From: an uncultured Eubacteriales bacterium
Lineage (GTDB): Bacteria; Actinomycetota; Coriobacteriia; Anaerosomatales; JAAXUF01
Length of the DNA stretch: 64,000 nt
NCBI GenBank assembly: GCA_964388455.1
Contig: CAYMAN010000005.1
Location: 2,920-66,919, forward strand
Direction: 5' to 3'
Shown here: positions 1-34,733 of the stretch, piece after piece
How positions within the stretch are numbered: the stretch's first letter is position 1
Layout of the letters: each line of letters begins with the position of its first letter
Translations under genes and position numbers: made by a program
Notes under the pieces: generated by a model
Seen by the model: only the letters and a program-made list of their open reading frames with translations
Databases searched by the model: none
What the model was told of the DNA's origin: nothing

Positions 1-1947
1 GCCGATGATCCAGTTCGTGACGGCACCGGTGATGTAGGAAGCGGAGTCCGTGTACGCCGTGAGGATGGTCGAGTTCGCCAGCCCGATGATGTTGGTGTCA
101 ACACCCGGGTTGCCGAGCTTGCCGACCACGACACCGAGCGCAGGAACATGCAGCTCAGCGAGACCCTCGCGGAGCAGTGCGACAGCGAGGTCCGCACCGA
201 CCATCTTGGGATCGAGGCCGTTGCCCGAAACGTGGACGTAGTCCGCGTAGTCGGCCAGGCCGAACGGGGTGAGATCCACGCTGGTGGCAAGCGCAACGTT
301 GTCCTTGAACAGGCCCATGATGAACATGCGAGCCATGGGACCGCCTTCGGCCGAGTTGCCGTTCCAGCGCGGAGCCTTGAGCCAGCTGTACTTCGAGGCA
401 TCGCCACGAAGCGGGATGGTGCGGTTGACCACGTGCGGGTCCGACACACCGTTGGCGGGGTACCCGGCTGCGACGGCAGCGGGTGACGTGGTGTCATACC
501 GCGCAAACGTGCAGTCCTCACGCAGGTTGGCGTACACATCAGCCGTGTTGATCGACTGAGCAGCGGCGGCGGGCGTCATGCCGGGCTTGTAGCCACGGGC
601 GAGAGCGAGCGAGCCGTCGGACTGCGGGAACGCGCCCCATGAGAGGAACTTCTTGATGCCGGCGCCGTAGCCGGAGCCGCCGTTGTTCACATTGTCGAAC
701 GGAGTGTAGAGCGCCCCGAGCGCAAGAACCAACGGTACGTACTCCTTGACGATGAACTCTCCGACCTCAGCGATCATGGCACGGAACTTCGTGCACTTGA
801 CCGTCAGGTTCTCGGTGTGGTCTGTGGTGACTCCACCGGCGACAAAGGTTGAGGTCATCGGCATACGACCTGCGAACAGCGCGCCTGCCTCGAACGTGAG
901 GCGACGGATGCGCAGTGCCTTGATGTACTGGTTGATGACAGCCGACCACAGGTCAGTCGAGAAGCCGTTGTCTTCGTCCTTCAGAGGAAGAACGCCGGTA
1001 CCGGCTCCACCATCAGTGCCGTGACCCGCCGAGAGCAGCAGCGGGTGATAGTAGCTGGTGTCGAAGTACGGAGTCCACGGCGCCATGTTGGGGCCCTGAA
1101 CGTAGCTCGGCGCAGCCAGGTGATAGAAGTGCGTGATGCTCGACATCAAGTACTCCGCAGCAAGCACAAGGTTGCGGATGTGCACCGCCTTGGCGGGCAC
1201 GCCCTTACCGTTGGCGCCGGGGGCACCGATCATCGGTGTCTGGAAGTTGTCGTTGTAGCCGTAGACCGACTCAACGGCGAACATGGCCGTGGTGCCGTGG
1301 GGTACGGGGCACACGCCACAGATGCGCTGAACGAACGTGATCGCATCGTTAGGGTTGCGGCCGAGCAGGAAGTTCTCGAAGCCACGCCACAGGTTTCCGT
1401 GAACGTCGGCTTCGGTCACGAGACCGTCGGCACCCGTCGTGAGCTTGACGCCGAGGTGCCCCTCGATGCGGGAGATCGGATCGACCTCCACCTCACCGGA
1501 GCTGAGAATTCCAGCCATCACGGAAATCGCGCGAGTGGCGCGGAATTCTGCGCCCAGCGACACATCCGTTGCATCGACGAAATCAGCAGCGAACGTGTAG
1601 GTACCTGCGGAAGCACCAGCGGCAAAAGTCACGCGAAGGTTTCCGGTGACATTCGCACCGCCGGCGATTGGGACGACGTCGTTCGGGGGCGGGTAGTTCG
1701 GATACGTGCCGAAGAGCGATGAACCCACGAGGGTAACCGGAAGCGCCTCCCAGACACCTGCATTGTTCACCGTGTCTTCAAATTCCATGCTCACAAGTCC
1801 GGCGGCGAGCCCGCTGCCGGCGATTGAGAACTGGAACTTGCCGAGAACGCTGGCTACGTCCGTGTTGGTGACAGTAACGCTCGTAACAAGCGGCGTACCT
1901 TTCACAAACGGCTTGTTAAAGCCATTGAGAACGTAAGTGAATCCCAT
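1..1947 (-). CDS. [NiFe]-hydrogenase large (catalytic) subunit; 3' end lies outside the window; carries a ~150-aa N-terminal extension
   Basis: Absent from the ORF track because it runs off the window. My translation starts at ATG 1947 (SD GAGGAGG upstream): MGFTYVLNGFNKPFVKG... The conserved DPISRIEGHLG sits at about aa 156, followed by the Ni-binding motif QRICGVCPVPHG. The gene lies directly downstream of the small-subunit gene. Confidence 0.85.
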   Translation of the reverse strand, partial: MGFTYVLNGFNKPFVKGTPLVTSVTVTNTDVASVLGKFQFSIAGSGLAAGLVSMEFEDTVNNAGVWEALPVTLVGSSLFGTYPNYPPPNDVVPIAGGANVTGNLRVTFAAGASAGTYTFAADFVDATDVSLGAEFRATRAISVMAGILSSGEVEVDPISRIEGHLGVKLTTGADGLVTEADVHGNLWRGFENFLLGRNPNDAITFVQRICGVCPVPHGTTAMFAVESVYGYNDNFQTPMIGAPGANGKGVPAKAVHIRNLVLAAEYLMSSITHFYHLAAPSYVQGPNMAPWTPYFDTSYYHPLLLSAGHGTDGGAGTGVLPLKDEDNGFSTDLWSAVINQYIKALRIRRLTFEAGALFAGRMPMTSTFVAGGVTTDHTENLTVKCTKFRAMIAEVGEFIVKEYVPLVLALGALYTPFDNVNNGGSGYGAGIKKFLSWGAFPQSDGSLALARGYKPGMTPAAAAQSINTADVYANLREDCTFARYDTTSPAAVAAGYPANGVSDPHVVNRTIPLRGDASKYSWLKAPRWNGNSAEGGPMARMFIMGLFKDNVALATSVDLTPFGLADYADYVHVSGNGLDPKMVGADLAVALLREGLAELHVPALGVVVGKLGNPGVDTNIIGLANSTILTAYTDSASYITGAVTNWIIG

Positions 1948-1967
1948 CTGCTATCCTCCTCTCTTTC

Positions 1968-3320
1968 TTATCGAACGATGAACGGCAGGAAGCTGTCAGG
2001 ATATCCGGCTTCCGTGCAGCCCATGCAGGGGGCTCCGCCGGCGACACAGTTGCCGCCCTTGGCGCCGTGCACGGTCTGAATGCCGTAGTCCCATGAAGCG
2101 TTGTTGGTCGGCTGCTGGCCGTTCCAGCCGTGAGCAGCACACAAGGTCATGGTCTGCATGCCCTTGCAGCCAAGAAGCTGCAGGCAACCCGGATCACCGG
2201 ACTTGGCGGCGAACTTGCCGTCGAGGAAGTCCTGGTAGCGGGTACAGAACGCCCCGTGCAGAGTCTGGCCGTAGACAGCCTTGAGACGACGCTGGCTGTC
2301 GACCGCAGCGCCGTTGATGCTGCCGTCACTCTTCAGAATACCCAGAGGGCCGTTGGCCGCAGTTGCTGCACCGGGACCATTGGTGAAGTCAACGAGCCAC
2401 GCGACGACCGTGAGGATGAACCACCACGGGTTGGTCGGGCAACCGGGAACCGCAACGACCTTGTTCTTGGCAAGTGAACCTCGGTGCTCGAGGAACTGGT
2501 ACGTCCCCATCGCTCCGGTCTGACCTTCGCCGAGAAGCGGAGACACGCAGGCGGGGTATCCGCCAAAGCATGCGCACTGGCCGATCGGGATGACCGCAGC
2601 GCACTCTGCCTGCGTCGCAAGCTCGAAGACGACGTCGTCGAACTCCAGTTCGTGTGGCGTCGGCTCGTTGGGGGTGCCATCGACACCGATCGAGCACCAC
2701 GGTGCGGCACCCGTTGCATCCCAGTATCCGCCCAGTTCCTTGGGCTGAATCGCACCCTCGACGATGAGCACAAACGGCGCACCGGGGGTGTCCATGCTGT
2801 CCTTGAGCCACTGGTAGGCCAAGTCCGAACCCATGCCCATGATCGTCTCATGGTACTGAAGGTCGATGAAGTCGATCAGAACGTCCGCGACATCGATGAT
2901 GTACGGATCGTCATCGTTTGCGACAGCGTTGAAGTCCGAACCCGTGACGCTGCCGGTCTTGCTGATGGTGCGGTGACCGTACGGATGAGTAGTATCGCCG
3001 TAGGGATCGGAGCCGAGCACGTGTGCTCCGCTGCCATCTCCTCCCACCGCAAGGTCAAGCGCCGCAACGGTCGTATAGCTAGCGCCCTCGATAGCTTTAC
3101 CGGTGGCGTTCTCAAACAGGCTGAGCAGAGATACCGAACAGCCGGTGCACTCAGCGCCATGCACCCAGACCACCTTCGGCTTCGTGGTCCAAGATGCACC
3201 CGCCCATGCGGAACCATGGGCAAACGCCTCGCCGACCTTTGCAAGGTCGAGCTGGCTCATGCCCATGGCTGCAGCCAAGGTTCCCAGCCGAGTAACAAAC
3301 TGACGTCTTGTTATCGCCAT
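1968..3320 (-). CDS. [NiFe]-hydrogenase small subunit, Tat-exported, no C-terminal membrane anchor
   Basis: Twin-arginine signal MAITRRQFVTRLGTLAAAMGMS; cluster motifs HGAECTGCSVS and CVAGGAPCMGCTEAGYPDSF. ATG 3320 (SD GAAGGAGG ~10 nt upstream) is preferred over the track start 3341. Confidence 0.9.
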   Translation of the reverse strand: MAITRRQFVTRLGTLAAAMGMSQLDLAKVGEAFAHGSAWAGASWTTKPKVVWVHGAECTGCSVSLLSLFENATGKAIEGASYTTVAALDLAVGGDGSGAHVLGSDPYGDTTHPYGHRTISKTGSVTGSDFNAVANDDDPYIIDVADVLIDFIDLQYHETIMGMGSDLAYQWLKDSMDTPGAPFVLIVEGAIQPKELGGYWDATGAAPWCSIGVDGTPNEPTPHELEFDDVVFELATQAECAAVIPIGQCACFGGYPACVSPLLGEGQTGAMGTYQFLEHRGSLAKNKVVAVPGCPTNPWWFILTVVAWLVDFTNGPGAATAANGPLGILKSDGSINGAAVDSQRRLKAVYGQTLHGAFCTRYQDFLDGKFAAKSGDPGCLQLLGCKGMQTMTLCAAHGWNGQQPTNNASWDYGIQTVHGAKGGNCVAGGAPCMGCTEAGYPDSFLPFIVR

Positions 3321-3381
3321 GCTTTCCCAAACCTCCTTCACGCACTCCTAGTGCTAGTAAGACTTGCCGAGAACGAGCACG

Positions 3382-3437
3382 AAAAAAGGCCCACCTCCTG
3401 TCGAACTGCTCCGTCTCTCGGAACACAGGTGGAGGGC
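3382..3437 (-). terminator. Intrinsic-terminator-like hairpin plus U6 inside the hydrogenase 5' leader (candidate attenuator)
   Basis: Minus-strand arms GCCCUCCACCUGU / ACAGGAGGUGGGC pair at 11 of 13 positions and are followed directly by UUUUUU. The element lies ~60 nt upstream of the small-subunit ATG. Confidence 0.55.
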
Positions 3438-3570
3438 GATATCGGGACGATGGCAGAAGCACCCTGTGTAGGTTGGTAGATTGCTTCCGACTGCGCCTTG
3501 GTCCGAGTACCGGCTCCGACCTGCAAGTACACAGCTGTATGCGACTAAGAATCGCTAAAACTGGCGCCCT

Positions 3571-3717: not shown

Positions 3718-5220
3718 CTAGGACCTGGACCCAGAACCGTCCTTGGGCGCCCCGAACCGGTTGATGAACTCGAGGTGATCCACGGTCGGGACCTCGAGCA
3801 CCCGTCCGATACGGCGCAGTTCGCCACTCTCGGTGCAGAAGAGTCGCGCGCGTTGCGCGATCGACATCACGATCGCGTCCGACTCCGTGAGCTCATAGCG
3901 ATCCTTGAGCGCCTGAGAGTCCGACGGCGAATGCTCGACGGGATTCAGCAGCTCCTCCATGTTCGCGCGACCCTGAATCAGCCCGCGCAGCAGCTCGTAA
4001 TCCTCGAGCGTGACCTCCCAGCGCACTCGACGCTGAATCATGCGCTCAGCTTCCTCAGCGGCGATCATGGCGGTCACGAAGTCAGCGGTGGCGAAGAAGC
4101 GACGCTTGCGGAGGAGCAGGAGCAGCGGCAGAAGGAGGAGGGGCGTCAGGCAAAGAGTCCAGCCGGTGGCCGTGGTCGGAACAGGAATCGGGTTGGCAAC
4201 CGAGGGCCATCCCCATACCTGGATGCGTCCGTTGTTACTGTCGGTTATGAAGATCTTGCGCTTGGAGTCGATGGATACATCGTTGGGGTAGTTGAACTGG
4301 CCTTCCAAGACACCCTTTGCACCAAAGGTCAGGACCTTCTCGGAGGTCGAGGAGTCCCAGATGGTGGCGTCGTGGGCGAGTGTGTCAACGACTACCAGGC
4401 GTAGCGGCTCCTCAGGGTCAAGTTTGGGAAGGAAGGCCAACCCGCGCGGAAGACCCTGGGTAACCTGCATGCGCTTGAACTCGCCTCGGCGGCTAAAGAC
4501 CTGAATGCGACGATTGTTGGAGTCGGCGACCCATACCTCGTCGCCGCGGACCTTGACGGAGTTGGGGAACTGGAAGACGGACTCACCCTGGGTCGGATCA
4601 TTGATCATGCCAAACGTCCCGACGCTGCGGTTGAACGCTCCGTCGGGACGGAAGATCAGCAGGCGGTGCCCGTTGAGAATCTCAGTGACGTAGAGCGTCC
4701 CATCAGGTGCGAACGCCAGAGCGAGCGGTGCCCACTGAACACCCTTGGGAACCTTGATCGTGGGCAGCTGATCCTTGGGAAGCTTGGGATCGAAGACCCG
4801 AAGGAACTTCCCCTCAGAGCTGAAGATGGCGATGCTTCGCGTGCGGCGATCGCTCACCCACAGTTCACCGGTCTTGGGATGCTTTGCGACGTAGAGCGGC
4901 ACGACCAGCTTGCCCTTACCCCACGAGGCGATCTTGGTGCCGGTCTTGGTGAACACGTCGAGCACGCCGCGACGGGAATCCGTCACGTATACCCGATTCC
5001 CGCTCACGAGAACGCCCAACGGACGGACCAGTCTGTCCTGACCCTCGCCACTGAAGGAATACAGGTACTGCGGCATGGGAAGCAGATCCGCCTCGTTGAC
5101 CTGAATGTCGATACCCAACGACCTGGTCGAGCGATAGTTCACGAACGCAGCTGCGAGCAACGCAAGGAGTATGACGAGTACGACGATCGCGATGATTTGG
5201 CGCATCCGCTTACGGGACAT
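3718..5220 (-). CDS. Bitopic membrane protein: TM, NHL-repeat beta-propeller, TM, ~135-aa PIN-like C-terminal domain (paralog A)
   Basis: N-terminal TM IIAIVVLVILLALLAAAF. NHL-type blades include VYVTDSRRGVLDVF, LWVSDRRTRSIAIF, VWVADSNNRRIQVF and IFITDSNNGRIQVW. A second TM (TLCLTPLLLLPLLLLL) is followed by RKRR. SD AGGAGGAA precedes the start. Confidence 0.8.
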   Translation of the reverse strand: MSRKRMRQIIAIVVLVILLALLAAAFVNYRSTRSLGIDIQVNEADLLPMPQYLYSFSGEGQDRLVRPLGVLVSGNRVYVTDSRRGVLDVFTKTGTKIASWGKGKLVVPLYVAKHPKTGELWVSDRRTRSIAIFSSEGKFLRVFDPKLPKDQLPTIKVPKGVQWAPLALAFAPDGTLYVTEILNGHRLLIFRPDGAFNRSVGTFGMINDPTQGESVFQFPNSVKVRGDEVWVADSNNRRIQVFSRRGEFKRMQVTQGLPRGLAFLPKLDPEEPLRLVVVDTLAHDATIWDSSTSEKVLTFGAKGVLEGQFNYPNDVSIDSKRKIFITDSNNGRIQVWGWPSVANPIPVPTTATGWTLCLTPLLLLPLLLLLRKRRFFATADFVTAMIAAEEAERMIQRRVRWEVTLEDYELLRGLIQGRANMEELLNPVEHSPSDSQALKDRYELTESDAIVMSIAQRARLFCTESGELRRIGRVLEVPTVDHLEFINRFGAPKDGSGSRS

Positions 5221-5276: not shown

Positions 5277-6317
5277 TTACTTGGCTCCGAGCTCAGCCAA
5301 CATGTTCTTCAGAGCGGTGTCGTCGGGCAGGGTAGCCAGCGCGGCCTTGACCACTTTCTGGGCACCGGCTGTGTCGCCGTCGGCCTTGAGCACTTCTGCG
5401 TGGAAGATGACGGCGTCTACGTTCTCGGGGTCCAGTGCCGTCGCCAACAGCGCTGCATCGATGGCGTCCTTGAGTTGACCCGCCTTCAGCCGGGCACGAC
5501 CGTCTTCAACCGCCTGCTTCGAGGTACCAAGCTTCTTCAGCGCATCGACGGGCTGGTCCTGCTCGGGTGCCAGGTCGGCAGCCTTGCGGAGATGAATAGC
5601 GGCGTTGATCTTGTCGCCTTGATCGAGCAGGATCATCCCGTAGAGGTAGTGCGCCTCAGGATAGTTGGGATCGAACGCGAGCGCGGCGTTGAGTTGCTTG
5701 ACCGCCGCCACGTCCTCCCCCATACCGCGCAGAGACTGCGCGAGGAGGTAGTAGGTGTCCGAGGCGTCCTTGCGGATTCGCAGCGCTCCCTTGAAGTAGC
5801 CCGCGGCATCCTCGTAGCGTCGCTGACTCAGCGCGATCTCGCCCAGATGGAAGAGAGCCTGCTCGCGGCGCTCGTTCATCGCCTCGAACTGAGTCGCCTG
5901 CGTAAGCTCGACGACTTTGGTGAAGTACTTCTCGGCGGGGCCGTACTCCTTGTTTTCCATTGCGATGATGCCCAGGTCGAGGTAGGCGCCCGTGTGGTTC
6001 TTGTCGAGCTTCACTGCGATCTGGAACTGCTCGGCTGCCGGCTTGAGCTGGCCGGCTGCGGCGAGTGCCTCCCCGAATCGGACGCGTGCGGCCGCACTAT
6101 TGGGGGACTTTCTGACCACCGCCTCGATATCCTTGATCGCGCGCTGCGCGGGAGTTGCGGTGAGCTCTGCCTGCCTCCCCTGCCACACGGAATAGCCGAG
6201 AAGGGCGCCGAGGCCTATGACCGCGGACACGAGAACGATGATGACGATGCGAAGGATGCCGTCGGCGCCTTCAGGCGAGCGCTTCAATCGGCGTGTTGCA
6301 GGCGCGTTCTCACTCAT
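5277..6317 (-). CDS. Membrane-anchored TPR-repeat protein (paralog A)
   Basis: Single N-terminal TM (ILRIVIIVLVSAVIGLGALLGY) followed by tandem TPR-like helix pairs, e.g. AVKLDKNHTGAYLDLG and ALAFDPNYPEAHYLYG. ATG 6317 (SD TAAGGA) is preferred over the track TTG 6323. Confidence 0.75.
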   Translation of the reverse strand: MSENAPATRRLKRSPEGADGILRIVIIVLVSAVIGLGALLGYSVWQGRQAELTATPAQRAIKDIEAVVRKSPNSAAARVRFGEALAAAGQLKPAAEQFQIAVKLDKNHTGAYLDLGIIAMENKEYGPAEKYFTKVVELTQATQFEAMNERREQALFHLGEIALSQRRYEDAAGYFKGALRIRKDASDTYYLLAQSLRGMGEDVAAVKQLNAALAFDPNYPEAHYLYGMILLDQGDKINAAIHLRKAADLAPEQDQPVDALKKLGTSKQAVEDGRARLKAGQLKDAIDAALLATALDPENVDAVIFHAEVLKADGDTAGAQKVVKAALATLPDDTALKNMLAELGAK

Positions 6318-6455: not shown

Positions 6456-7301
6456 CTACGGAAGCTGCTTTGCGACGGCGATCAGGGCGTTCTTGAGACC
6501 CGCCTGCTTACCGGGATCGGCCGCCATCTCCACCTGGATAAGCACAGCACCTTGCGTGAATGCAAGAATCGCATACCGAGTGTTGTCGGTGCCAAAATAC
6601 GCAGAATGTCCATTGACTTTCACCGTGCTCGCACCCATGGAGTAGGGGCGCTTCGAGTACGCCTCGAGAGCGGCTGCGGCGTAGCCCTTGTCCCGGAACT
6701 GCTCAACGTCGATGACCAGAGCGCGCACCTTGGACCCTGATGCCGGGACGTACTGACGTGTGAGGTTAAAGGCGCCCGCCACTGGCTTGGCCGCCTTGAA
6801 CCCTGTCAAGGTTCCGGGAGCCCACTTCAGCAGCGTTTTGACCGGACCGGTAATCTCGTCGTCACCGGGCTTCGCGGTACCCGTGGTGGGATTGGAGCCA
6901 CCGGATCCGGGGTTCGCAGTGTCGGGTGTCGGCTTCTTGCCGGACTTGATGACGGCCAGCTGCTTTGCCGCCTGACGGAATGCAGGGTCGTCGGCGACGA
7001 TCTGGGCGAGCTTCAACTGCGCTGCGGCCATATCACCCTTGGTGATGTCGGCCTGTGCTGCCGCGTAGAGAGCGTCAAGCTTCTTATGCCGATCACAGGT
7101 GATAGTGACGGTCTCGGCCTTGCGCAGGGTAGCCTCCTCGGCGGGGACGCTCACCGTTTTGATGGTGTTTGAGACGACCTCACCGTAAGTGCAGAGGGTG
7201 CGTGTCCCGGACTGGACCTCAACCTTCTTCTGACAGCCCCCTGTCGCGACCAATGAAGCCGTCAGTGCCGCAAGCGCGAGTATGGATCCAAGACGTCTCA
7301 T
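6456..7301 (-). CDS. Lipoprotein of unknown function
   Basis: MRRLGSILALAALTASLVATGGC is a signal peptide with a lipobox. The ATG 7301 overlaps the upstream stop as ATGA. The track start at 7493 adds an Arg-rich extension that overlaps the upstream gene, so I rejected it. Confidence 0.7.
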   Translation of the reverse strand: MRRLGSILALAALTASLVATGGCQKKVEVQSGTRTLCTYGEVVSNTIKTVSVPAEEATLRKAETVTITCDRHKKLDALYAAAQADITKGDMAAAQLKLAQIVADDPAFRQAAKQLAVIKSGKKPTPDTANPGSGGSNPTTGTAKPGDDEITGPVKTLLKWAPGTLTGFKAAKPVAGAFNLTRQYVPASGSKVRALVIDVEQFRDKGYAAAALEAYSKRPYSMGASTVKVNGHSAYFGTDNTRYAILAFTQGAVLIQVEMAADPGKQAGLKNALIAVAKQLP

Positions 7302-15526: not shown

Positions 15527-15654
15527 ACTGCGTTCCTCTCTGATTGGCAGAGATCAGAAAAATCTCCGTGCTCCTGTGCCCTGAATGAGCGCGCATCGAT
15601 GACGTGTTTTGCCCATCCTCCTCTCGCGTGCCATCGCTGCTTACCGGGGAGCGA

Positions 15655-15705
15655 AAATGAAAAACCGGGCGCGACACAGCACTGCGCTGTGAACACACTC
15701 CGGTT
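15655..15705 (-). terminator. Terminator-like structure with U-run in the FDH-operon leader
   Basis: Outer stem AACCGG/CCGGUU encloses the inner hairpin CACAGC-GCAGU-GCUGUG. It is followed by UUUUUCAUUUU. It lies between the riboswitch-like element and the start codon. Confidence 0.4.
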
Positions 15706-25646: not shown

Positions 25647-25650
25647 GGTG

Positions 25651-26876: not shown

Positions 26877-26879
26877 GGG

Positions 26880-27913: not shown

Positions 27914-28519
27914 CTAGATCTCTCCTCCGTCCGGCGTGGTCCCCGAGGGCACCGTGCTCAGACAGTCCTCGTCGCCTTCGGCTCCTGCGGAACTGCGCGC
28001 GGTACCCCCGGGGACCACGCCTGCCAGGTAGCGGGTGCACACCATATCTGCCACTGCGATTGCATCCTCTAGACCGAACAGCGGGACGCCTTCAGGTGCT
28101 AGATCCGGGTTGTCGGTCACCAAGGCCACTAGCTCCTCCGGGGTGGAGATCAGGGACTCGCTTCTTGCTCGCCTCGATATCTCGATGCGTTGAGTGGCCT
28201 CGCGCTTGAAGCCCTCGGTGAGGAGGATATCGGCGCCAGAGTCAGTGGCGATCGTCGCCAGCTCTGGCAGCGTGTACTCGCGCTCTACTTTTGCGATGAG
28301 ACTGAACTTATCGGGGCTTGAGACCATTGTGGTGACGGCGCCGGCTCGGGCGTGGCGCCAGGAGTCCTTACCGGGGACGTCGATGTCGTAGTCGTGGACG
28401 TGGTGCTTCACGGTGGCTACGCGCACGCCTCGGCTCGAGAGCTCGCGGATGAGCTTCTCGAGGAAGGTGGTCTTGCCGGAGTCGCCCTTGCCGACGATGG
28501 AAACGATCGGAACCGTCAC
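27914..28519 (-). CDS. mobB: Molybdopterin-guanine dinucleotide biosynthesis adapter MobB
   Basis: P-loop IVSIVGKGDSGKTTFLEKLI...VATVKHHVHDYDIDVPGKDSWRH. The GTG start overlaps the upstream TAG as TAGTG. Confidence 0.85.
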   Translation of the reverse strand: MTVPIVSIVGKGDSGKTTFLEKLIRELSSRGVRVATVKHHVHDYDIDVPGKDSWRHARAGAVTTMVSSPDKFSLIAKVEREYTLPELATIATDSGADILLTEGFKREATQRIEISRRARSESLISTPEELVALVTDNPDLAPEGVPLFGLEDAIAVADMVCTRYLAGVVPGGTARSSAGAEGDEDCLSTVPSGTTPDGGEI

Positions 28520-28737
28520 TAGAAGCAGCCGAGATCGCAGTTGTGGACGCGCACTCCGGCCATATCCGCGGCGGTACCGGCGACCTTGTACGGGATGCCG
28601 GTGTCCTCGGCGAACTTGCGAAGCACAGGGCATGTGACCTTTTCGTCGACGGACTTGGCCTTGATGGCGTCCATCATTTCAGGTGTGACCTGCTCGACCC
28701 AGCGGGGATCGTGTGTCTTGGGACCCTTGTCGCTCAT
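28519..28737 (-). CDS. Small conserved-looking protein of unknown function, C-terminal HNCDLGCF
   Basis: 72 aa, translationally coupled on both sides (ATGA with moeA, TAGTG with mobB). Codon usage looks coding. I recognise no family. Confidence 0.5.
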   Translation of the reverse strand: MSDKGPKTHDPRWVEQVTPEMMDAIKAKSVDEKVTCPVLRKFAEDTGIPYKVAGTAADMAGVRVHNCDLGCF

Positions 28738-30044
28738 ACGGTGCCTTCTTCCATGTCGAGCCGGACGCAGTCGACCTGCGTGCCGGCGGGGAACACGCCT
28801 TCGTCCGCGGGGAGGACGACGAAGCAGTTGCCGCGGTGGGCGGCGGTGAGCAACGCCGAGGACTGGCTGTGCGGCAGCGACGCCAGGTAGCCGTCGCCGG
28901 ACGGATCACGCTCGATTCTGCCGCGCAGGTAGTAGCGACGGTCCTGCTTCTTCTTCACGTCATGCGCGAGTCGTGCCACCGTCACCGGCCGATCGATCGC
29001 CGAGAAGCCCATCATGCGACGGAGCGCCGGGCGCACGAAGATCTCGAAGCCGACGTAGGTGCTGGTGGGATTGCCCGGCAGGCCGAAGAACGGCACTCCC
29101 CGGATCGAGCCGAGCGTCTGCGGATTGCCGGGGCGCATCTTGACCTTGGCGAACGCGAGCTCGCCGAGTTCCTCGAGAATCGGCTTCACGAAGTCGAAGT
29201 CGCCCACTGACACGCCGCCGCTGGTCAGGATGAAGTCGCACTCCTCGGCGGCGAGATTGAAGGCGTCGCGCGTGGCATCGAGGTCGTCGAGGACGATCGG
29301 GTAGCGGACGGGAATCGCGCCGGCTGCAAGAACCTGAGCGGCGATCGAGTAGCTGTTGGAGTTGCGGATCTTGCCCGGACCCGGCTTCTCGGCGACCTCG
29401 ACGAGTTCGCTGCCGGTCGAGAGCACGGCGACGCGCGGGCGGCGGCGGACGCTGACGGTGGCGTGGCCGGTCGACGCGAGCAGGCCGATGCCCGCCGGGC
29501 CGAGCACGTCGCCGGCCTCGATGACGACGTCACCGGCGCACACCTCCTCGCCCTGCAGCCGGATGTGCTCGCCCAGGCGCGGCTCGAGCTCGAAAGCGAC
29601 CGTGGAGCCGAGACCACCATCGCCGGCGACCACGCGGGTGCGCTCGACCATCACGACGCTGTCGGCGCCTGAGGGTACGGCGGCACCAGTCATGATGCGG
29701 GCGGCCTCGCCGGGACCGACTTGGATGCCGGCGACGTCGTCGCCGGCGCCGATGTGTGCGATGACGAGCAGCTGGCCGGGGTTCTCGGCGGTAGCGCCTT
29801 CGAGGTCGGCGGCGCGAACGGCGAACCCGTCCATCGCCGAGTTATCGAACGGCGCAACGTCGATGTCGCTCACCGCGTCCTCGGCGAGAACGCGGCCGAG
29901 CGCGTCGAGCAGCGATACCTGCTCGGCGGGCATCGGCGCGATGCGGTCGAAGACGAGCTCGCGCGCCTCCTCGACGGTCATGACCGGAATCGACACGTCG
30001 GAATCCGCGATGGGCCTGGGTGCGGGAGTCGGGGTCGGGCTCAT
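28734..30044 (-). CDS. moeA: Molybdopterin molybdenum/tungsten transferase MoeA
   Basis: ...SDIDVAPFDNSAMDGFAVRA...ILTSGGVSVGDFDFV...FGLPGNPTS... The ATG follows the upstream TGA directly. Confidence 0.9.
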   Translation of the reverse strand: MSPTPTPAPRPIADSDVSIPVMTVEEARELVFDRIAPMPAEQVSLLDALGRVLAEDAVSDIDVAPFDNSAMDGFAVRAADLEGATAENPGQLLVIAHIGAGDDVAGIQVGPGEAARIMTGAAVPSGADSVVMVERTRVVAGDGGLGSTVAFELEPRLGEHIRLQGEEVCAGDVVIEAGDVLGPAGIGLLASTGHATVSVRRRPRVAVLSTGSELVEVAEKPGPGKIRNSNSYSIAAQVLAAGAIPVRYPIVLDDLDATRDAFNLAAEECDFILTSGGVSVGDFDFVKPILEELGELAFAKVKMRPGNPQTLGSIRGVPFFGLPGNPTSTYVGFEIFVRPALRRMMGFSAIDRPVTVARLAHDVKKKQDRRYYLRGRIERDPSGDGYLASLPHSQSSALLTAAHRGNCFVVLPADEGVFPAGTQVDCVRLDMEEGTV

Positions 30045-31481
30045 TCAGTCCTCCTCGGGAGGGGCGAGTACGCGCTGGGGGTGCGTGTAGACGGTGAGTT
30101 TGCCGCCGCGGGCGTAGCCGACAAGCGTGATGCCCAGCTCGGCACCGATCTCTGCCGCAAGGTCGGTGACCGCCGAGCGCGACGCGACGATGGGGACCGC
30201 GGCCTTGGCTGCCTTGACAGCCATCTCGTAGCTGATGCGGCCGGTGGAGATGAGCACGGTGTTGCGCGTGGAGACGCGGTCGAGCCAGGCCCGACCGAGC
30301 AGCTTGTCGAGCGCGTTATGGCGGCCGACGTCCTCGCGGACGAGCGCGAGTTCGCCGCCGAACGCCAGGCCGCACGCGTGCATGCCGCCGGTGTCGCGGT
30401 AGAGCGTGGCGGCGCGCGCCATATCGCCGACGTAGCGATAGAGCTCGTCGGCGGTGACGGTGAGGTCGCCGGTGACCGGCTCGAGACCGCGGGCGTGGCC
30501 GACGCTCGAGAACGTCACGCCCTTCCCGCAGCCGCTGGTCAGGTACCGCGTGCGGTGCACAAGGTCCTCGGGCACGACCTCGTCGCTGGTGACCCAGACG
30601 AAGCCGCGTTTGGCGTCGACGTCGACGGTGCGCAGCGCTTCGCGGTCCTCGAGCAGACCCTCCGAGACGAGGAAGCCTACGGCGAGCTCCTCGAGGTCGC
30701 TGGGCGTGGACTGCGTCGTGGCGACCTCGACGTCGTTGAGGTAGATGGTGACCGGACGCTCGCTGGGCATACCCCGCGAGCGACGCGTGGCGACTTCGAC
30801 GACCTCGATCTTGATGGGGCCGGCGTAGTGATCGCGCTTACTGCCCTGCTTGTCGGGCACCTCAGCGGTCTCGCGCGCCTCGGCGAGGTCGGCGGGGGTG
30901 TTCACGTTCACGAGCGAGCGCAGCTCGGGGTCGACGGCTCGCAGCGCCTCGAGCGGCAACTCGGCGACGCGCAGGGTCGAGATCATGGCGATGATGCGAC
31001 GACGACCGGTGGAGAGCGCAGCACGTGCGGCCGGGAGGCAGGCTTCGACGCGGTAGAGGGCGAGAAGCGGCTCCGGACCCTTCTCGCCGACCGGCAGGAC
31101 GACGTCCACGCCTTCTCGGACATCCCAGAGCGCGCGGATGACGTCGGGTTCGAGGTGCGGCATGTCGGCGGCCACGGCGAGAACCCACTCGTCTCCGGCG
31201 GCGGCCATGGCTGTGGCAAGGCCACCGAGCGGACCCTGGTACGCGACCTCGTCGGAGAGAATGCGGACGTCGGCGGGCAGCCCGGCTTCAGCGAGGGCTT
31301 CGGGACGGTTGGTGACGACGACCGTGTGATCGCAGACGCTTTGCACGACACCGACGACGCGCGACACCAACGGCTCGCCATCGACGGCGAGCAGCGTCTT
31401 GTCGACACCCATGCGCACCGACCGTCCACCGGCCAATACAGCCGCGGTGAGCGGCAGCGACGTGTGAACCCGCTGCGTCAT
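30045..31481 (-). CDS. Fusion protein: MobA (Moco guanylyltransferase) N-terminal domain plus FdhD (FDH sulfurtransferase/accessory) C-terminal domain
   Basis: The N-terminus LTAAVLAGGRSVRMGVDKTLL...GPLGG is MobA-like. The C-terminus ...GGMHACGLA...VGRHNALDKLLG...STGRISYEMAVKAAKAAVPIVASRSAVT is FdhD-like. Confidence 0.8.
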   Translation of the reverse strand: MTQRVHTSLPLTAAVLAGGRSVRMGVDKTLLAVDGEPLVSRVVGVVQSVCDHTVVVTNRPEALAEAGLPADVRILSDEVAYQGPLGGLATAMAAAGDEWVLAVAADMPHLEPDVIRALWDVREGVDVVLPVGEKGPEPLLALYRVEACLPAARAALSTGRRRIIAMISTLRVAELPLEALRAVDPELRSLVNVNTPADLAEARETAEVPDKQGSKRDHYAGPIKIEVVEVATRRSRGMPSERPVTIYLNDVEVATTQSTPSDLEELAVGFLVSEGLLEDREALRTVDVDAKRGFVWVTSDEVVPEDLVHRTRYLTSGCGKGVTFSSVGHARGLEPVTGDLTVTADELYRYVGDMARAATLYRDTGGMHACGLAFGGELALVREDVGRHNALDKLLGRAWLDRVSTRNTVLISTGRISYEMAVKAAKAAVPIVASRSAVTDLAAEIGAELGITLVGYARGGKLTVYTHPQRVLAPPEED

Positions 31482-31589: not shown

Positions 31590-32708
31590 CTAGTCGGTGA
31601 TGGGTGCCCACCGTACCGCGGTGGCCTTGAAGAGCGCGAGTACCGGAGCTCCCGGCACCAGCCCGAGCTCGTCTGTAGCCGCACGGGACACACTTGCAGC
31701 AAGTCGCAAGCCGTCGGCATCGAGCACCACGTGGTTGCTCGCGCCACGGGGACTCACCGACTCGACTGACGCGCGAACACGGTTGCGCGCCGTCGTCGCC
31801 GGCAGCTCCGCCGTGATCTCGAACAGCATGACGTCCTCGGGGCGCACAGCCAGTCGCACGCGCGCGCCCACAGCCGCCGAGCCCGAAACGAACACCTCGA
31901 CGCCCTGCGCCGCACCCTGCACCGCGATGGTCACAAGCCCCTCGTCGGATGCTGTGACGATTCCGCGCGACGCCTCCTCCATGCCGAGGAACGCGGCGCT
32001 CCAGTCGTCTTCGGGGAGCCCCATCACCTCGTCGGCGGGTCCGCAGGCGACTATGCGGCCGGCGTTCATGATCGCGACCTGGTCGGCGATCACGAGCGCC
32101 TCGTCTTGATCGTGCGTAACGTAGACAACGGTCACGCCCGTCTCGCGCAGGATCGAAGCGAAGTCATGGGTGAGCTGACGCTTCAGCAGCGGGTCGAGGC
32201 TGGCCAGCGGTTCATCGAGCAGCAGCACCTGCGGCTCGACCACGAGCGCTCGGGCCAGCGACACGCGCTGCGCCTCTCCACCGGACAGCGCGAGCGCGCT
32301 GCGCTTCTCGTACCCGGCAAGGCCCACACGCTCGAGCGCGGCCGCAACCCGTGGCCCGCGCTCCGCCCGCGGTACGCCGCGCGCCGCGAGGCCGTACGCG
32401 ACGTTTCCTCCGACCGACCCCTTGAACAGGTACGGCCGCTGGAACACCGCCGCCATCGCAAGATGCCCCGCCCGATCGCCCATGGACACCGGAGCGCCGC
32501 CGAGAAGGATCGTCCCCGCATCAGGTTGCTCGAGAAGTCCGAGCACCGAGAGCAGCGTCGATTTTCCCGACCCACTGGGGCCGATGATCGCGAGCACACT
32601 GCCCGCTGCGACCTCCACCTCCGGGACGTCGAGCAGGAAGCCGCTCCTGGGGAACGTGCGTCGCACTCCGGTCGCTGAGATCGACAGCGGCGTCACTGAC
32701 GCATTCAT
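31590..32708 (-). CDS. tupC: Tungstate/molybdate ABC transporter ATPase with C-terminal TOBE domain
   Basis: Walker A GPSGSGKST, signature LSGGEAQRVSLARAL, Walker B LLLDEPLASLD, and a TOBE-like tail. Confidence 0.75.
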   Translation of the reverse strand: MNASVTPLSISATGVRRTFPRSGFLLDVPEVEVAAGSVLAIIGPSGSGKSTLLSVLGLLEQPDAGTILLGGAPVSMGDRAGHLAMAAVFQRPYLFKGSVGGNVAYGLAARGVPRAERGPRVAAALERVGLAGYEKRSALALSGGEAQRVSLARALVVEPQVLLLDEPLASLDPLLKRQLTHDFASILRETGVTVVYVTHDQDEALVIADQVAIMNAGRIVACGPADEVMGLPEDDWSAAFLGMEEASRGIVTASDEGLVTIAVQGAAQGVEVFVSGSAAVGARVRLAVRPEDVMLFEITAELPATTARNRVRASVESVSPRGASNHVVLDADGLRLAASVSRAATDELGLVPGAPVLALFKATAVRWAPITD

Positions 32709-33418
32709 CGGCTGTCACGCTCCCAGCGGTCGGCCGAAGTCTGGAGCCCTGTGAGAATCACGTTGACGAAGAGCACGATCGCCATGAGGATCGCCGCTAG
32801 GGCCAGGGCCTCACCGTAGCGGCCCATGCGCGTGAACTGCATGATGCCCGTCGTCATGACGCGCGTGTCGCCTTCGAGGTTGCCTCCCACCATCTGCACG
32901 GCACCGACCTCGGAGATGATTGCGCCGAACCCTCCGGCTACAGCAGCGATCAGGCCCATACGGGCTTCCGAGAGCGTGAGAATCGAGCGGCGCCATCGCC
33001 CCGCACCGAGCGAGCGCGCTTGGAGGATGAGCTCTCTGGGCACCGCGGCGACGGATGCGGCGGTGATCGCCATGACAATGGGAATCGCGATCACGACCTG
33101 CGCGATGACCATCGCCTGCTGCGAATACAGCAGCCCCAGATCGCCGAGCGGACCACGGCGCGAGAGCGTCATCGCGACGATCAGGCCGACGACGACCGGC
33201 GGCAGACCCATGCCGGCGTTGAAGATGACCAGCGCGGCACGCCTGCCGATGAAGCGCTTGGTGCCGACCAACAGGCCGACGGGTAGCCCGATGACAAGCG
33301 CGATCAACGTCGCGGTTCCCGACACGCGAACCGACGTGAACACGATCGTCCATACATCGACGGAGCCGGAGGAGAGCATCGCCCACCCCTCGCGCCACGC
33401 GTCCGTGAACAGCTGCAT
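32705..33418 (-). CDS. tupB: Tungstate/molybdate ABC transporter permease
   Basis: Six-TM permease with an EAA-like loop (ARSLGAGRWRRSILTLSEARMGL). Overlaps both neighbours. Confidence 0.75.
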   Translation of the reverse strand: MQLFTDAWREGWAMLSSGSVDVWTIVFTSVRVSGTATLIALVIGLPVGLLVGTKRFIGRRAALVIFNAGMGLPPVVVGLIVAMTLSRRGPLGDLGLLYSQQAMVIAQVVIAIPIVMAITAASVAAVPRELILQARSLGAGRWRRSILTLSEARMGLIAAVAGGFGAIISEVGAVQMVGGNLEGDTRVMTTGIMQFTRMGRYGEALALAAILMAIVLFVNVILTGLQTSADRWERDSR

Positions 33419-33442
33419 CAGGCTACCCGTCCCCGGTTGCTG

Positions 33443-34336
33443 CTACTCGGCGTTCGGGACGAACAGCTGCTGTCCGAACTCCGCCACGCCGTACTCGCCG
33501 ATGACCTTCTGGCCATCAGCCGACAGGATCCAGTCGTTGAACGCCTGTGCGCCGACCTGGTTCTTGGCATCGGTCACCACGATGACGCCGTACTGGTTGA
33601 GCAGTCCCTTGTCCTTCTCGTACAGCACGACCAGGTCGGGATTGGCCTTCTGCGACGACAGGTAGGTGGCACGGTCGACGAGCGTGTAGGCGGCCTTGTC
33701 GTTGGCGACCTTGAGCGTCTCGCCCATGCCCTGACCGGTGGAGAGGTACCACGCGTCCGCATCAGGCGTCGGCGTGGGTGTCACACCGGCGTTCGCCCAG
33801 AGCTTCAGTTCCTTCTTGTGGGTTCCGGAATCGTCGCCACGAGAAACGTATAGTCCCTTGCCGGACTTGCCGGACTTCTGGATTGCGAGCATCGCAGCGG
33901 TGGTATCAGCCGAACCCTTGATCGCAGCAGGATCGGACGCGGGACCCACCAGAACGAAATCGTTGTACATGACGCTCTTGCGCTCGACTCCGAAACCACC
34001 GGCCACGAACTTCTCTTCGTCCGCCTTGGCGTGCACGAGCAGCACGTCTGCGTCCTTGGTCTCGCCCAACTTGAGCGCTTCACCGGTACCGACGGCGATG
34101 ACCTTGACCTTGTACTCAGGATTGGCCTTCTCGAACGCAGGAATCAGCACGTCAAACAGTCCTGAATCCTGTGTCGAGGTTGTTGAGGCCAAGACGACAT
34201 CGCTTGTCGTCGGGGTCTCGGCGGCTATAGGCGCTTCGGCTTTCTGCCCGCAACCCACAAGCGCCAATACCAGTACGACGGCGAGCGAGATGCCCGCCAG
34301 GCGCCTCTTGCGAGGCGCGGCGTTCGGGTGGTGCAT
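33443..34336 (-). CDS. tupA: Tungstate-binding lipoprotein TupA
   Basis: Lipobox LALVGC. TupA-type motifs LASTTSTQDSGLFDVLIPAFEK, VGTGEALKLGETKDADVLLVHA and SRGDDSGTHKKE. Confidence 0.8.
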   Translation of the reverse strand: MHHPNAAPRKRRLAGISLAVVLVLALVGCGQKAEAPIAAETPTTSDVVLASTTSTQDSGLFDVLIPAFEKANPEYKVKVIAVGTGEALKLGETKDADVLLVHAKADEEKFVAGGFGVERKSVMYNDFVLVGPASDPAAIKGSADTTAAMLAIQKSGKSGKGLYVSRGDDSGTHKKELKLWANAGVTPTPTPDADAWYLSTGQGMGETLKVANDKAAYTLVDRATYLSSQKANPDLVVLYEKDKGLLNQYGVIVVTDAKNQVGAQAFNDWILSADGQKVIGEYGVAEFGQQLFVPNAE

Positions 34337-34339
34337 ATG

Positions 34340-34442
34340 AATCCCCTTTCCACCGGGAGGCAGGGCCGTTTCCGTGCCCTACCCTATCGGTCCGGCATCC
34401 TTGGCCCATCATGGGCGGTAGGCGTACCGGACTCGGAGACTT
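34340..34442 (-). ncRNA. Moco/Tuco-riboswitch-like element abutting the tupA start codon
   Basis: AAGUCUCCGAGUCCGG...CCUACC...GGUAGG...CACGGAAACGG...CUGCCUCCCGGUGGAAAGGGGAUUCAUAUG. The 3' block closely resembles the E. coli moaA leader as I recall it (GCCUCCC...UGGAAAGG...AUG). The SD lies inside the conserved GGAAAGG. Confidence 0.7.
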
Positions 34443-34484
34443 TGGCCGCGCGGGTGCGCGACGGATTCCAGCATAGCGCACGAC

Positions 34485-34518
34485 CGCGCCCGGCACAGCA
34501 TCAACTTTTCCGGGCGCG
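34485..34518 (-). terminator. 9-bp GC hairpin downstream of mop
   Basis: CGCGCCCGG-N16-CCGGGCGCG, 9 nt after the mop stop. No clear U-tract follows. Confidence 0.35.
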
Positions 34519-34526
34519 AGTAGTGA

Positions 34527-34733
34527 CTATTCCTTGCCGAGAAGTACGTGGTCGGCCTTGATGATCGCAACGACTTCGTCGCCGACCGCGATGCCCATCT
34601 CTTTGACTGCGTCGACCGTGATAACGGACGTGATCATCTGACCACCGACATCCATCTTTACGAGCGCCTCTACGGCGCCTTCGCGGACTTCGGTGACCGT
34701 TCCCTTCAGTTGGTTGCGCGCGCTGAGCTTCAT
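34527..34733 (-). CDS. mop: Mop/TOBE molybdate-tungstate binding protein (molbindin)
   Basis: 68 aa, MKLSARNQLKGTVTEV...GQMITSVITVDAVKEMGIAVGDEVVAIIKADHVLL. Confidence 0.85.
   Translation of the reverse strand: MKLSARNQLKGTVTEVREGAVEALVKMDVGGQMITSVITVDAVKEMGIAVGDEVVAIIKADHVLLGKE

Follow-up and report, generated by a model that had tools for sequence, protein, structure and literature searches.

A co-directional respiratory island in an uncultured Coriobacteriia bacterium

We analyzed a 64-kb stretch of contig CAYMAN010000005.1 (GenBank assembly GCA_964388455.1, positions 2,920 to 66,919), hereafter the window, which carries a respiratory island encoding a [NiFe] hydrogenase, a formate dehydrogenase (FDH), multiheme c-type cytochromes and a cytochrome b. 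Gene content and order were determined from the open reading frame (ORF) listing, translation, and Pfam and NCBIfam scans. A preliminary description of the locus had placed all genes from 34733 down to 1 on the minus strand, running from cofactor supply genes through the cytochromes and the FDH to the hydrogenase, and the ORF listing and family scans bore out both this order and the content listed. The co-directional run is longer than first described and reaches a LysR gene at 34850-35740; minus-strand genes tile 35740 down to 1, with three promoter regions and two leaders as the sole gaps. We counted 45-46 c-type heme motifs and one FdnI/HyaC-type cytochrome b in the island, in agreement with the approximately 46 c-type hemes and single cytochrome b noted before. 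The total is given as a range because 12 sites of the "13-heme" protein are conserved and its CxxCK site is not.

The host is an uncultured, monoderm member of the Coriobacteriia related to Anaerosomatales (OPB41 lineage). Homologs of the NHL protein (549 matches) and of the 20-heme cytochrome (313 matches), where named, came from Coriobacteriia or "Actinobacteria" metagenome-assembled genomes. Scanning one genome per species yielded 78 loci, onto which the window proteins were mapped by BLAST, and we added locus L080 (OW818687.1) from a closed genome. All 78 loci come from Coriobacteriia, Anaerosomatales or Actinomycetota genomes (some titled "Eubacteriales"), including Coriobacteriaceae sp. 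EMTCatB1 and HGW-Actinobacteria-1, -6 and -7. Homologs and loci thus lie almost only within Coriobacteriia/Anaerosomatales, cultured members of which have a Gram-positive wall (PMC9686372), and the window encodes a surface protein with CWB2 cell-wall-binding domains. The wall type and the CWB2 protein make the earlier inference of a monoderm host sound.

A single cytochrome b heads the multiheme operon

The cytochrome operon (23522-16047) begins with a dihaem-type cytochrome b of the FdnI/HyaC family (22659-23522; PF01292, 67.5 bits against a gathering threshold of 30.1). His64/67, His97, His152, His213 and His227 are invariant among 46 orthologs, and His213 and His227 lie 14 residues apart on one helix, as in the FdnI/HyaC pattern. 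The best NCBIfam matches, TIGR02125 ("Ni/Fe-hydrogenase b-type cytochrome subunit", 74.7 bits, cut-off 121.5) and TIGR01583 ("FDH gamma", 35.6 bits, cut-off 115.9), were both below their cut-offs, and a PDB sequence search with the protein returned no match. As had been claimed for the island's only cytochrome b, the gene heads the multiheme operon and is not the third gene of a dehydrogenase operon.

Three c-type cytochrome genes follow. The 7-heme cytochrome (MHC7; 21645-22640, seven heme motifs) starts 19 nt past the cytochrome b stop codon, or 13 nt when counted from the upstream TTG of its ORF. Its sole hydrophobic segment is N-terminal, with a Ser/Thr/Ala/Pro-rich linker behind this signal or anchor, and transmembrane (TM) prediction gave no C-terminal TM helix. 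The 12- to 13-heme cytochrome (MHC13; 20245-21585) has ten CxxCH motifs plus one Cx3CH, one Cx4CH and one CxxCK, and 12 of its motif sites are conserved in 49 orthologs. The 20-heme cytochrome (MHC20; 18581-20221, 20 CxxCH; PF14522, PF22113, PF14537) carries an N-terminal anchor or signal. In Pfam, the cytochromes match MtrC/MtrF-domain and c7-type families. The operon ends with a membrane-anchored tetratricopeptide repeat (TPR) protein (TPR1; 17533-18537; TPR families, with PF23914 at 41.2 bits, just under the cut-off of 42) and an NHL propeller protein (NHL1; 16047-17543; PF01436; two TM helices).

The preliminary description had itself raised the possibility that the cytochromes belong to a known enzyme such as nitrite or sulfite reductase. 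We considered whether they are subunits of a nitrite, sulfite or tetrathionate reductase or a hydroxylamine oxidoreductase (HAO) merely lying beside the dehydrogenases. Such an enzyme would account for the CxxCK of MHC13 and for a weak Cytochrome_C554 match of MHC7 in Pfam, and the related EMTCatB1 is said to encode nitrite reduction (PMC7943316). The CxxCK site is, however, absent in 38 of the 49 orthologs, and the four cytochromes showed no NrfA, octaheme or HAO family match in Pfam or NCBIfam. A PDB sequence search with MHC20 found no homolog of solved structure, and gene order and a shared operator tie the cytochromes to the fdh and hyd genes. We rejected an assignment as nitrite or sulfite reductase parts, given the unconserved CxxCK and the missing enzyme-family matches, and consider any known enzyme of this kind highly improbable.

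Two exported dehydrogenases are each paired with a hexaheme cytochrome

The FDH operon (15526-3718) starts with the 1500-aa catalytic subunit FdhA (11024-15526), which has a twin-arginine (Tat) export signal (SRRDFLK) and an N-terminal 4Fe-4S Cys motif (PF10518, PF04879). An in-frame TGA at 14819-14821 reads ...HQARI-U-HSSTVAGL, where U is selenocysteine (Sec); HQARI-U-HSSTV and GGINALRGIHNVQG (the NALRG catalytic Arg motif) align to Desulfovibrio vulgaris FdhA. Among proteins of solved structure, FdhA is closest to D. vulgaris W/Sec-FdhAB (E = 3e-94), D. gigas W-FDH and Escherichia coli FdnG. In 54 loci the TGA is kept in the context EHQARI-U-HS(S/A)TV, with no variant carrying Cys. A hairpin 13 nt past the UGA folded no better than shuffled controls (z = -1.6), so the case for Sec decoding rests on conservation and machinery. 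The latter comprises tRNA-Sec (50461-50553, minus strand; Rfam) and selB, selA, yedF and selD (54950-59771, minus strand), which should allow decoding of the FdhA UGA. FdhA is accordingly annotated here as a predicted FDH of the Sec-containing Mo/W-bisPGD FdnG/FdhA type, and the tungstate-type transporter genes of the island are suggestive of W as its metal.

FdhA is long, with 1500 aa vs. ~1000 for typical FdhA, and its orthologs range from 1144 to 1578 aa. The C-terminal ORF scored 336.5 bits against TIGR01553, compared with an equivalog cut-off of 814, and insertions split the match into four stretches. The main insertion covers residues 348-758, where D. vulgaris FdhA has ~80 residues (~330 aa net), and holds a repeat-blade domain (~13412-14254, minus strand). 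Pfam up to E = 5 gave nothing for the insertion, and the relatives of the blade domain found in a library of 1.8 billion proteins belong to the five-bladed propeller families GH130, GH43 or GH32. This propeller may act as a glycan- or wall-binding tether.

FdhA is followed by an FdhB/HybA-like FeS subunit (10120-11010; Fer4 families, NCBIfam HybA and FDH3_beta), which a C-terminal TM helix (residues 258-276) anchors in the membrane, and by a hexaheme cytochrome c (MHC6; 8876-10114; six CxxCH; PF09699). MHC6 has a signal peptide ending in AFA; six non-motif His are invariant in its family, and one invariant His lies five residues past the predicted signal cleavage site. Next comes a polytopic membrane protein (7298-8764; 12-13 TM helices), whose gene is translationally coupled through an ATGA overlap to that of a lipoprotein (6456-7301; lipobox LVATGGC). 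Neither protein belongs to a Pfam family, and searches up to E = 5 gave nothing for either. The lipoprotein is syntenic in 31 loci and has conserved Cys37, Cys69 and His72, and the membrane protein is clade-specific and conserved in the fdh operon. An AlphaFold2 (AF2) model of the latter (pLDDT 91.6) revealed a 10-TM core of the drug/metabolite transporter (DMT)/EamA fold with an extra C-terminal β-containing domain. Foldseek against the PDB returned only DMT transporters, the best being SLC35B1, LicB and YddG (TMt 0.68-0.75), and no NrfD or FdnI structure; no His or Cys is conserved. A role as an NrfD- or FdnI-like quinone subunit was therefore rejected.

The hydrogenase operon (3320-1) encodes the small subunit HydS (1968-3320; PF01058, PF14720; best PDB match 2wpn_A) and the large subunit HydL (1-1947; PF00374), the 3′ end of which is cut by the window edge. 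HydS has the Tat signal MAITRRQFV and a ~75-aa insertion (residues ~75-150) matching no family, and no TM segment, including a C-terminal anchor, was predicted for it. HydL contains the N-terminal RxCGxC motif (QRICGVCPVPH), which, like the Tat signal of HydS, is as expected for group 1 membrane/periplasmic uptake [NiFe] hydrogenases. It matched NCBIfam NiFeSe_hydrog at 229 bits, below the cut-off, and in the PDB it is most similar to periplasmic [NiFeSe]/[NiFe] enzymes of Desulfovibrio. A ~145-aa N-terminal extension (codons 1-145; 1513-1947, minus strand) is absent in the L080 ortholog, and Pfam up to E = 5 gave nothing for it. The C-terminal DPCxxCxxH motif would lie in the part cut off. 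Since the L080 ortholog ends in ...SFDPCIACAVH, with Cys and not Sec, the window enzyme is predicted to be [NiFe] and not [NiFeSe].

In nine of the ten relatives having both subunits, HydS-HydL is followed by a further hexaheme gene (MHC6′), which encodes 445 aa in L080 and would fall just past window position 1. MHC6 and MHC6′ have a common N-terminus (...AFA↓NF..HG.YV.DTDACAGCHRAHTS) and C-terminus (...DNRGVCExCHNK), and MHC6′ is a clear paralog of the FDH-operon hexaheme. Each dehydrogenase would therefore have its own hexaheme partner, encoded in the place that the cytochrome b gene occupies in the classical enzymes. In L080, a gene behind the hydrogenase hexaheme (OW818687.1, 19741-21099, plus strand) encodes a 452-aa protein without a Pfam family.

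Neither dehydrogenase operon contains a cytochrome b, FdnI or NrfD gene. With the DMT fold of the FDH-operon membrane protein and its lack of conserved His or Cys, the earlier statement that neither operon has its own known quinone-reactive subunit stands.

TPR and NHL proteins accompany the cytochromes and the FDH

A second TPR-NHL pair closes the FDH operon. TPR2 (5277-6317; TPR families and PF23914, 49.9 bits, cut-off 42) scores high enough in Pfam to be assigned a TPR domain of the CcmH/CycH apocytochrome-chaperone type, and both TPR proteins have one N-terminal TM helix. NHL2 (3718-5220; PF01436), a six-bladed propeller protein, is 38% identical to NHL1. TM prediction gave both NHL proteins the same layout of a TM helix, an outside six-bladed propeller, a second TM helix and a cytoplasmic tail of ~130 aa. 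Pfam up to E = 5 gave nothing for the tail. An AF2 model of the NHL1 tail (pLDDT 93.6) matched PIN/VapC folds in Foldseek with probability ~1 and TM scores of 0.5-0.66, at weak E-values. The PIN-like tails are encoded at 16047-16460 and 3718-4131 (minus strand), and their acidic residues are conserved only in part. A membrane-spanning propeller-PIN architecture is thus confidently predicted for the NHL proteins. NHL/TPR genes beside multiheme clusters were noted earlier in Dethiobacter and "Ca. Tenderia".

One operator is shared by the three respiratory operons

The palindrome TGTAAC-N4-GTTACA occurs exactly three times in the 64 kb, where 0.01 occurrences are expected, and at most once in each of 100 shuffles. 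One copy precedes each respiratory operon, just downstream of a σ70-like promoter (TTGAC[AC]-17/18-TAnnAT) on the minus strand. Before hydS, the promoter-like site TTGACC-17-TAGCAT (3628-3600) is followed by the operator TGTAACACCTGTTACA (3586-3571); before fdhA, TTGACA-17-TACGAT (16009-15981) by TGTAACACGTGTTACA (15966-15951); and before cytB, TTGACA-18-TAGTAT (23693-23664) by TGTAACTGCTGTTACA (23660-23645). The operators lie 3-14 nt downstream of the -10 hexamer, a position that is typical of a repressor site and suggests repression here. In the 79 related loci (1.33 Mb), the core GTAAC-N4-GTTAC was found at 86 sites, compared with ~0.5 expected from base composition. These sites lie upstream of fdhA (41), cytB (18), hydS (12) and the second TPR gene (3); the other 12, mostly near locus ends, have no island gene mapped within 700 nt downstream. 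This footprint in relatives indicates that the earlier proposal of one operator for three units is correct and general for the clade.

The operator consensus is identical to the published motif GTAACnnnnGTTAC of HcpR2, a CRP/FNR-family regulator (PMC1274295), and it also has the general form of a Rex operator. The sites are not at the activator-type position (about -41.5) expected for an HcpR2-type CRP/FNR regulon. A Rex-like repressor is a candidate regulator as likely as one of HcpR2 type.

The fdh leader additionally holds an aptamer of the molybdenum/tungsten cofactor (Moco/Wco) riboswitch (15781-15900, minus strand; RF01055, 64.8 bits, gathering threshold 36), present at the same place in six of seven relatives. 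A second Moco aptamer lies in the tupA leader (34328-34446, minus strand; RF01055, 54 bits). About 250 nt (15527-15780) separate the fdh aptamer from the fdhA start, including a GC hairpin and then a T-run near 15660-15690, at which the terminator scan made no call.

The island is conserved in Coriobacteriia and partly described in relatives

The synteny comparison proposed in the preliminary description recovered the island order across dozens of species-level genomes. In 34 loci the block CytB-MHC7-(MHC13)-MHC20-TPR-NHL immediately precedes fdh; in five loci, and also in L080, it immediately precedes hyd. FdhA-FeS-MHC6 is found in 44 loci and FeS-MHC6-membrane protein-lipoprotein in 31, and a TPR-NHL pair stands before fdh (54 loci) or hyd (12 loci). 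Gene order, Sec codon, operator and fdh-leader Moco riboswitch all recur across related loci.

These data bear on whether the island is a chance neighborhood of three unrelated co-directional operons. Co-directional runs are common in bacteria, and the GC content of the respiratory genes (1-24000; 0.59-0.65) differs from that of the cofactor and housekeeping genes (24000-64000; 0.66-0.70), mainly at codon positions 1 and 3. Protein composition or an older transfer may underlie the lower GC; even so, the island is vertically widespread in the clade. With gene order kept in dozens of species-level genomes and the operator conserved as well, chance is already refuted, and we assign it a negligible probability.

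The island had been regarded as a combination not recognized as a described system. This view has to be withdrawn, since two papers on related organisms already touched on homologous clusters. In Parvivirga hydrogeniphila, a cluster of 15 genes (MCL4079376-90) was proposed as a determinant of Fe(III) reduction (PMC9686372); its FDH occupies positions 7-8 of the 15 genes, as here. Biocathode transcriptomes of EMTCatB1 highlighted FDH-FeS-hexaheme genes homologous to those of the island (PMC7943316). The EMTCatB1 locus (L027 in our set; genes 1c0406-1c0415) has a gene order identical to the island and is almost certainly the same island. These accounts treat the cytochromes and the FDH only, without the operator, riboswitch, Sec codon, hexaheme pair, TPR/NHL-PIN genes, DMT protein or FdhA insertion. 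Within the literature searched, the repressor-type operator joining three operons, the combination of riboswitch and operator on fdh, the paired hexahemes, the FdhA propeller insertion, the DMT-fold subunit and the NHL-PIN proteins appear to be new. For three of these, namely FdhA with its propeller, the membrane proteins of NHL-PIN type and the DMT-fold subunit, no counterpart is described there.

The published reading of the FDH is that of a CO2 reductase in a cytoplasmic pathway; Khomyakova et al. gave MCL4079382-3 the role of reducing CO2 for the reductive glycine pathway (PMC9686372). Because the FDH is Tat-exported, it is probably not a direct cytoplasmic CO2 reductase of this pathway, and the earlier reading for Parvivirga needs revising.

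Proposed electron flow and its alternatives

We propose, with a probability of roughly 0.55, that the island is a clade-conserved, co-regulated module for H2 and formate oxidation on the outer membrane face of monoderm Coriobacteriia, with the shared cytochrome b acting as menaquinone reductase. FdhA/FdhB and the Tat-exported [NiFe] hydrogenase would oxidize formate and H2 outside the membrane, and the hexaheme subunits would hand the electrons to the shared 7/13/20-heme network. The FdnI/HyaC-type cytochrome b would be the single membrane coupling point for both dehydrogenases, reducing menaquinone on the cytoplasmic side in the manner of FdnI and HyaC and so completing a redox loop. Quinol could be re-oxidized by another cytochrome, for which an NrfH-type 20-heme protein encoded outside the island (50616-52205) is a candidate quinol-side partner; MHC20 and other cytochromes may then take the electrons across the wall to an Fe(III) mineral or an electrode. 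The TPR and NHL proteins may assist in maturing, assembling or tethering the exported complexes of cytochromes and enzymes, and on a cathode the chain could run backwards. A chain lying wholly outside the membrane cannot build a proton gradient, and lithotrophic growth needs a membrane coupling site. This consideration favors the b subunit as shared menaquinone reductase. The island is probably the machinery by which relatives such as Parvivirga grow on H2 and formate with iron minerals or electrodes.

Several points weigh against this proposal. The organism of the window is known here from its genes alone, we infer the direction of electron flow through cytochrome b, and the contacts between the hexahemes, the 7/13/20-heme proteins and cytochrome b are read from gene order alone. 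Geobacter CbcB, from the same broad family as cytochrome b, is thought to be a quinol oxidase. For both cultured Anaerosomatales, quinones are listed as "not detected" (PMC9686372, Table 2), a result that, if real, contradicts any quinone-based scheme. The Parvivirga cluster, almost certainly the same island, was matched to it by gene numbering and description only. The window contains no CRP/FNR, Rex or hcp gene, and its only regulators are of LysR, Fur-family and OmpR response-regulator type. On the supporting side, transcripts in EMTCatB1 of the FDH, FeS subunit, hexaheme, 1c0412/0413 cytochrome and hydrogenase rose 3- to 12-fold on current-consuming cathodes, the closed-circuit increase including [NiFe] hydrogenase 1c0058-61, a candidate homolog of the island operon. 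However, growth genes such as tufB rose likewise under closed circuit. The co-induction is thus not specific, and the data are only consistent with co-expression and weakly informative; the cytochrome-operon transcripts were also 5-20 times below those of fdh.

The opposite direction through cytochrome b is a less likely but serious alternative. Here the b and 7/13/20-heme operon would be a CbcBA-like export conduit, a quinol oxidase passing menaquinol electrons out through the wall, while the hexahemes would feed the extracellular network directly or reach quinone otherwise, for example through a group-1i hydrogenase. A dihaem-type b gene followed by a 7-heme c gene is the CbcBA layout, CbcBA homologs have been proposed as markers of extracellular electron transfer, and the MtrC/MtrF-domain and c7-type matches of the cytochromes fit such a conduit. 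Khomyakova et al. labeled the related cytochromes "quinol-oxidising", tied the cluster to Fe(III) reduction and reported a separate group-1i hydrogenase with cytochrome b in cultured relatives (PMC9686372). Against this, MHC7 lacks the CbcA-like C-terminal TM helix said to give the fourth b-heme ligand, and in the island cytochrome b a complete set of invariant TM histidines is already present. Regulation differs, with no σ54/BccR-type regulator, and no energy is conserved when H2 donates directly to an acceptor outside the cell. A candidate quinol dehydrogenase is already available in the NrfH-type 20-heme protein, and the cytochrome module always adjoins the donor enzymes, with an operator in common.

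We also considered reverse or bidirectional use, in which the FDH works as an extracytoplasmic CO2 reductase on electrons drawn from a cathode, from Fe(0), from Fe(II) minerals, or from H2 by way of the hydrogenase. The DMT-fold permease would then import formate for the reductive glycine pathway, or formate would be released to partners such as methanogens. Desulfovibrio W/Sec FdhAB enzymes, which gave the best PDB matches, are efficient CO2 reductases, a transporter-fold protein is conserved in the fdh operon, and tungstate-type uptake is encoded alongside. The fdh and hyd genes of EMTCatB1 were among the most expressed on the current-consuming biocathode, and the CO2-reducing assignment of MCL4079382-3 points the same way. 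Yet the cathode co-induction is not gene-specific, and cultured relatives oxidize formate and H2 as electron donors (PMC9686372). The DMT protein has no similarity to FocA/FdhC-type formate channels, and H2-to-CO2 transfer is near equilibrium and leaves cytochrome b unexplained. We therefore regard this use as unlikely, and shared menaquinone reduction remains our preferred reading.

Relation to known electron-transfer systems

Dehydrogenases without a quinone subunit that donate to c-type cytochromes are classical in Desulfovibrio. The island resembles this FDH/hydrogenase logic joined to a b/c module similar to Geobacter CbcBA and to electron-export cytochromes of the Gram-positive kind. The Desulfovibrio periplasmic W/Sec-FdhAB (FdhABC3) and [NiFe]/[NiFeSe] hydrogenases are the closest solved relatives of FdhA, HydL and HydS, and share with the island Tat export, the absence of an own cytochrome b or NrfD, and Sec; a multiheme c acceptor and tungsten are probable common features as well. 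In Desulfovibrio a separate membrane module, Qrc, Hmc or Tmc, joins the cytochrome c3 pool to menaquinone, and a separate module would do so here. Unlike Desulfovibrio, the island host is monoderm and has no periplasm, and its proposed acceptors are operon-encoded hexahemes of ~410-445 aa rather than soluble tetraheme c3. The proposed membrane link is an FdnI/HyaC-type b with 7/13/20-heme partners and not Qrc (molybdopterin-like plus NrfD). The FdhA propeller insertion, the HydL and HydS extensions and the TPR/NHL pairs likewise set the island apart.

In layout, the cytochrome operon is comparable to CbcBA/CbcL of Geobacter sulfurreducens, where a dihaem-type b gene lies beside a 7-heme c gene and is tied to extracellular electron transfer. 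The island MHC7, however, has no C-terminal TM helix, and the operon is preceded by a σ70-like promoter and a palindromic operator rather than σ54/BccR control; the module is therefore not CbcBA. It also adds two very large cytochromes, a TPR and an NHL protein, and adjoins H2 and formate dehydrogenases under a common operator. E. coli FDH-N (FdnGHI) has in common with the island the FdhA active-site motifs and the C-terminal TM anchor of FdnH, as in FdhB; FDH-N, HyaABC and HybOABC share the Pfam family of cytochrome b and its two-His-on-one-helix pattern. In the island, by contrast, cytochrome b is encoded outside the dehydrogenase operons, hexahemes are interposed, and one b would serve two enzymes. 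With no b subunit in either dehydrogenase operon, the system is not a strict FDH-N/Hya member.

The chains of Thermincola potens and Carboxydothermus ferrireducens, cited as an analogy in both the Parvivirga and EMTCatB1 papers (PMC9686372, PMC7943316), are likewise monoderm, with membrane and wall multiheme cytochromes and Fe(III) or electrode respiration. The island differs in having no detectable sequence match to solved OcwA, or to other PDB cytochromes apart from one weak OmcE-like match, and in encoding donor enzymes co-regulated with the cytochromes. The OmcE/OmcS clusters of Desulfuromonadia also combine multiheme cytochromes with β-propeller and TPR proteins, the companions in OmcE nanowire clusters being β-propeller lipoproteins. 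The monoderm island, unlike them, has no β-barrel porin, and its propeller proteins are bitopic, each with a PIN-like tail in the cytoplasm.

The C-terminal half of MHC6 gave a weak partial match, covering two heme motifs, to the OmcE-like filament subunit 9yuq_N of Desulfuromonas soudanensis (E = 4e-4); MHC6 gave no match to OmcS. A speculative idea, to which we give little credence, is that the hexahemes polymerize in OmcE/OmcS style into filaments rooted on the membrane-anchored FDH and hydrogenase and running through the wall, with the TPR and NHL/PIN proteins controlling assembly and length. If true, this would mean enzyme-rooted cytochrome nanowires in an actinobacterium and would explain why Parvivirga forms thin appendages only on ferrihydrite.

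Members of the Coriobacteriia lineage OPB41/Anaerosomatales occur widely, from the deep subsurface and sediments to biocathodes. For a lithotrophic electron-transfer chain in a Gram-positive host, the island supplies a full list of parts open to testing: two donor enzymes remodeled around dedicated hexahemes, one shared b, very large cytochromes and a regulon-defining operator. As a cultured relative exists, most of the predictions are directly testable.

Cofactor supply and neighboring genes

Upstream of the cytochrome operon, the minus strand carries a block of cofactor supply genes. A Mop/TOBE molybdate- or tungstate-binding protein (34527-34733; PF03459; TIGR00638, 82 bits, cut-off 55) is followed by a tungstate-type ABC transporter, TupC, TupB and TupA (31590-34336; NCBIfam). 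TupA was the sole family match of its protein (207 bits), TupB outscored ModB (143 vs. 95) and WtpC outscored ModC (223 vs. 195); every score of these best families was under the equivalog cut-off. A MobA-FdhD fusion, MoeA, MobB, MoaA, MoaC and MoaB/MogA come next (25161-31481; Pfam/NCBIfam). A tRNA-Leu(CAA) called by ARAGORN antisense in moeA (29295-29388, plus strand) had no Rfam support and was set aside as a probable false positive.

The block ends with a class-V cysteine desulfurase/selenocysteine-lyase-like enzyme (23967-25157) and an 80-aa Se_S_carrier protein (23728-23970; PF11823, formerly DUF3343), a pair syntenic with cytochrome b in 24 loci. The FdhD/IscS route is an established way to install the sulfido ligand of FDH cofactors. 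The desulfurase, sharing its supply block with the MobA-FdhD fusion, would together with FdhD fit cofactor sulfuration at least as well as selenium supply. The Sec machinery (50461-59771) lies in the window but outside the interval 1-34733. Nickel supply, which had been ascribed to this interval, was not found there, as no nickel-supply gene is encoded in 1-34733. A Fur-family regulator and a CbiM/CbiQ/CbiO-type energy-coupling factor transporter lie instead at 35878-38842 on the plus strand. The regulator, immediately upstream of the transporter genes, is His-rich with two CxxC motifs, and the M component starts MSHIHIPDG; the locus is possibly a Nur/Nik-like nickel system, for Ni or Co.

The LysR regulator at 34850-35740 (minus strand) matched NF040786, "selenium metabolism-associated LysR", at 234.7 bits (cut-off 250) and also "multihaem cytochrome-associated LysR". 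It adjoins the cluster in several relatives (L018, L065, L076-L078 and L080).

The NrfH-type cytochrome (50616-52205, plus strand) combines an N-terminal TM helix with a quinol-dehydrogenase module of NrfH/NapC type, behind which come approximately eight near-identical diheme repeats; it has 19 CxxCH and one Cx3CH in total. The GTAAC-N4-GTTAC operator is absent upstream of its gene, which adjoins a two-component system of an OmpR-type response regulator and a histidine kinase (52869-54936, plus strand). The CWB2 surface protein (43138-46686, minus strand) has 1182 aa, with BNR/sortilin-like propeller repeats, InlB-type B-repeats and three CWB2 domains, and is consistent with a monoderm envelope or S-layer.

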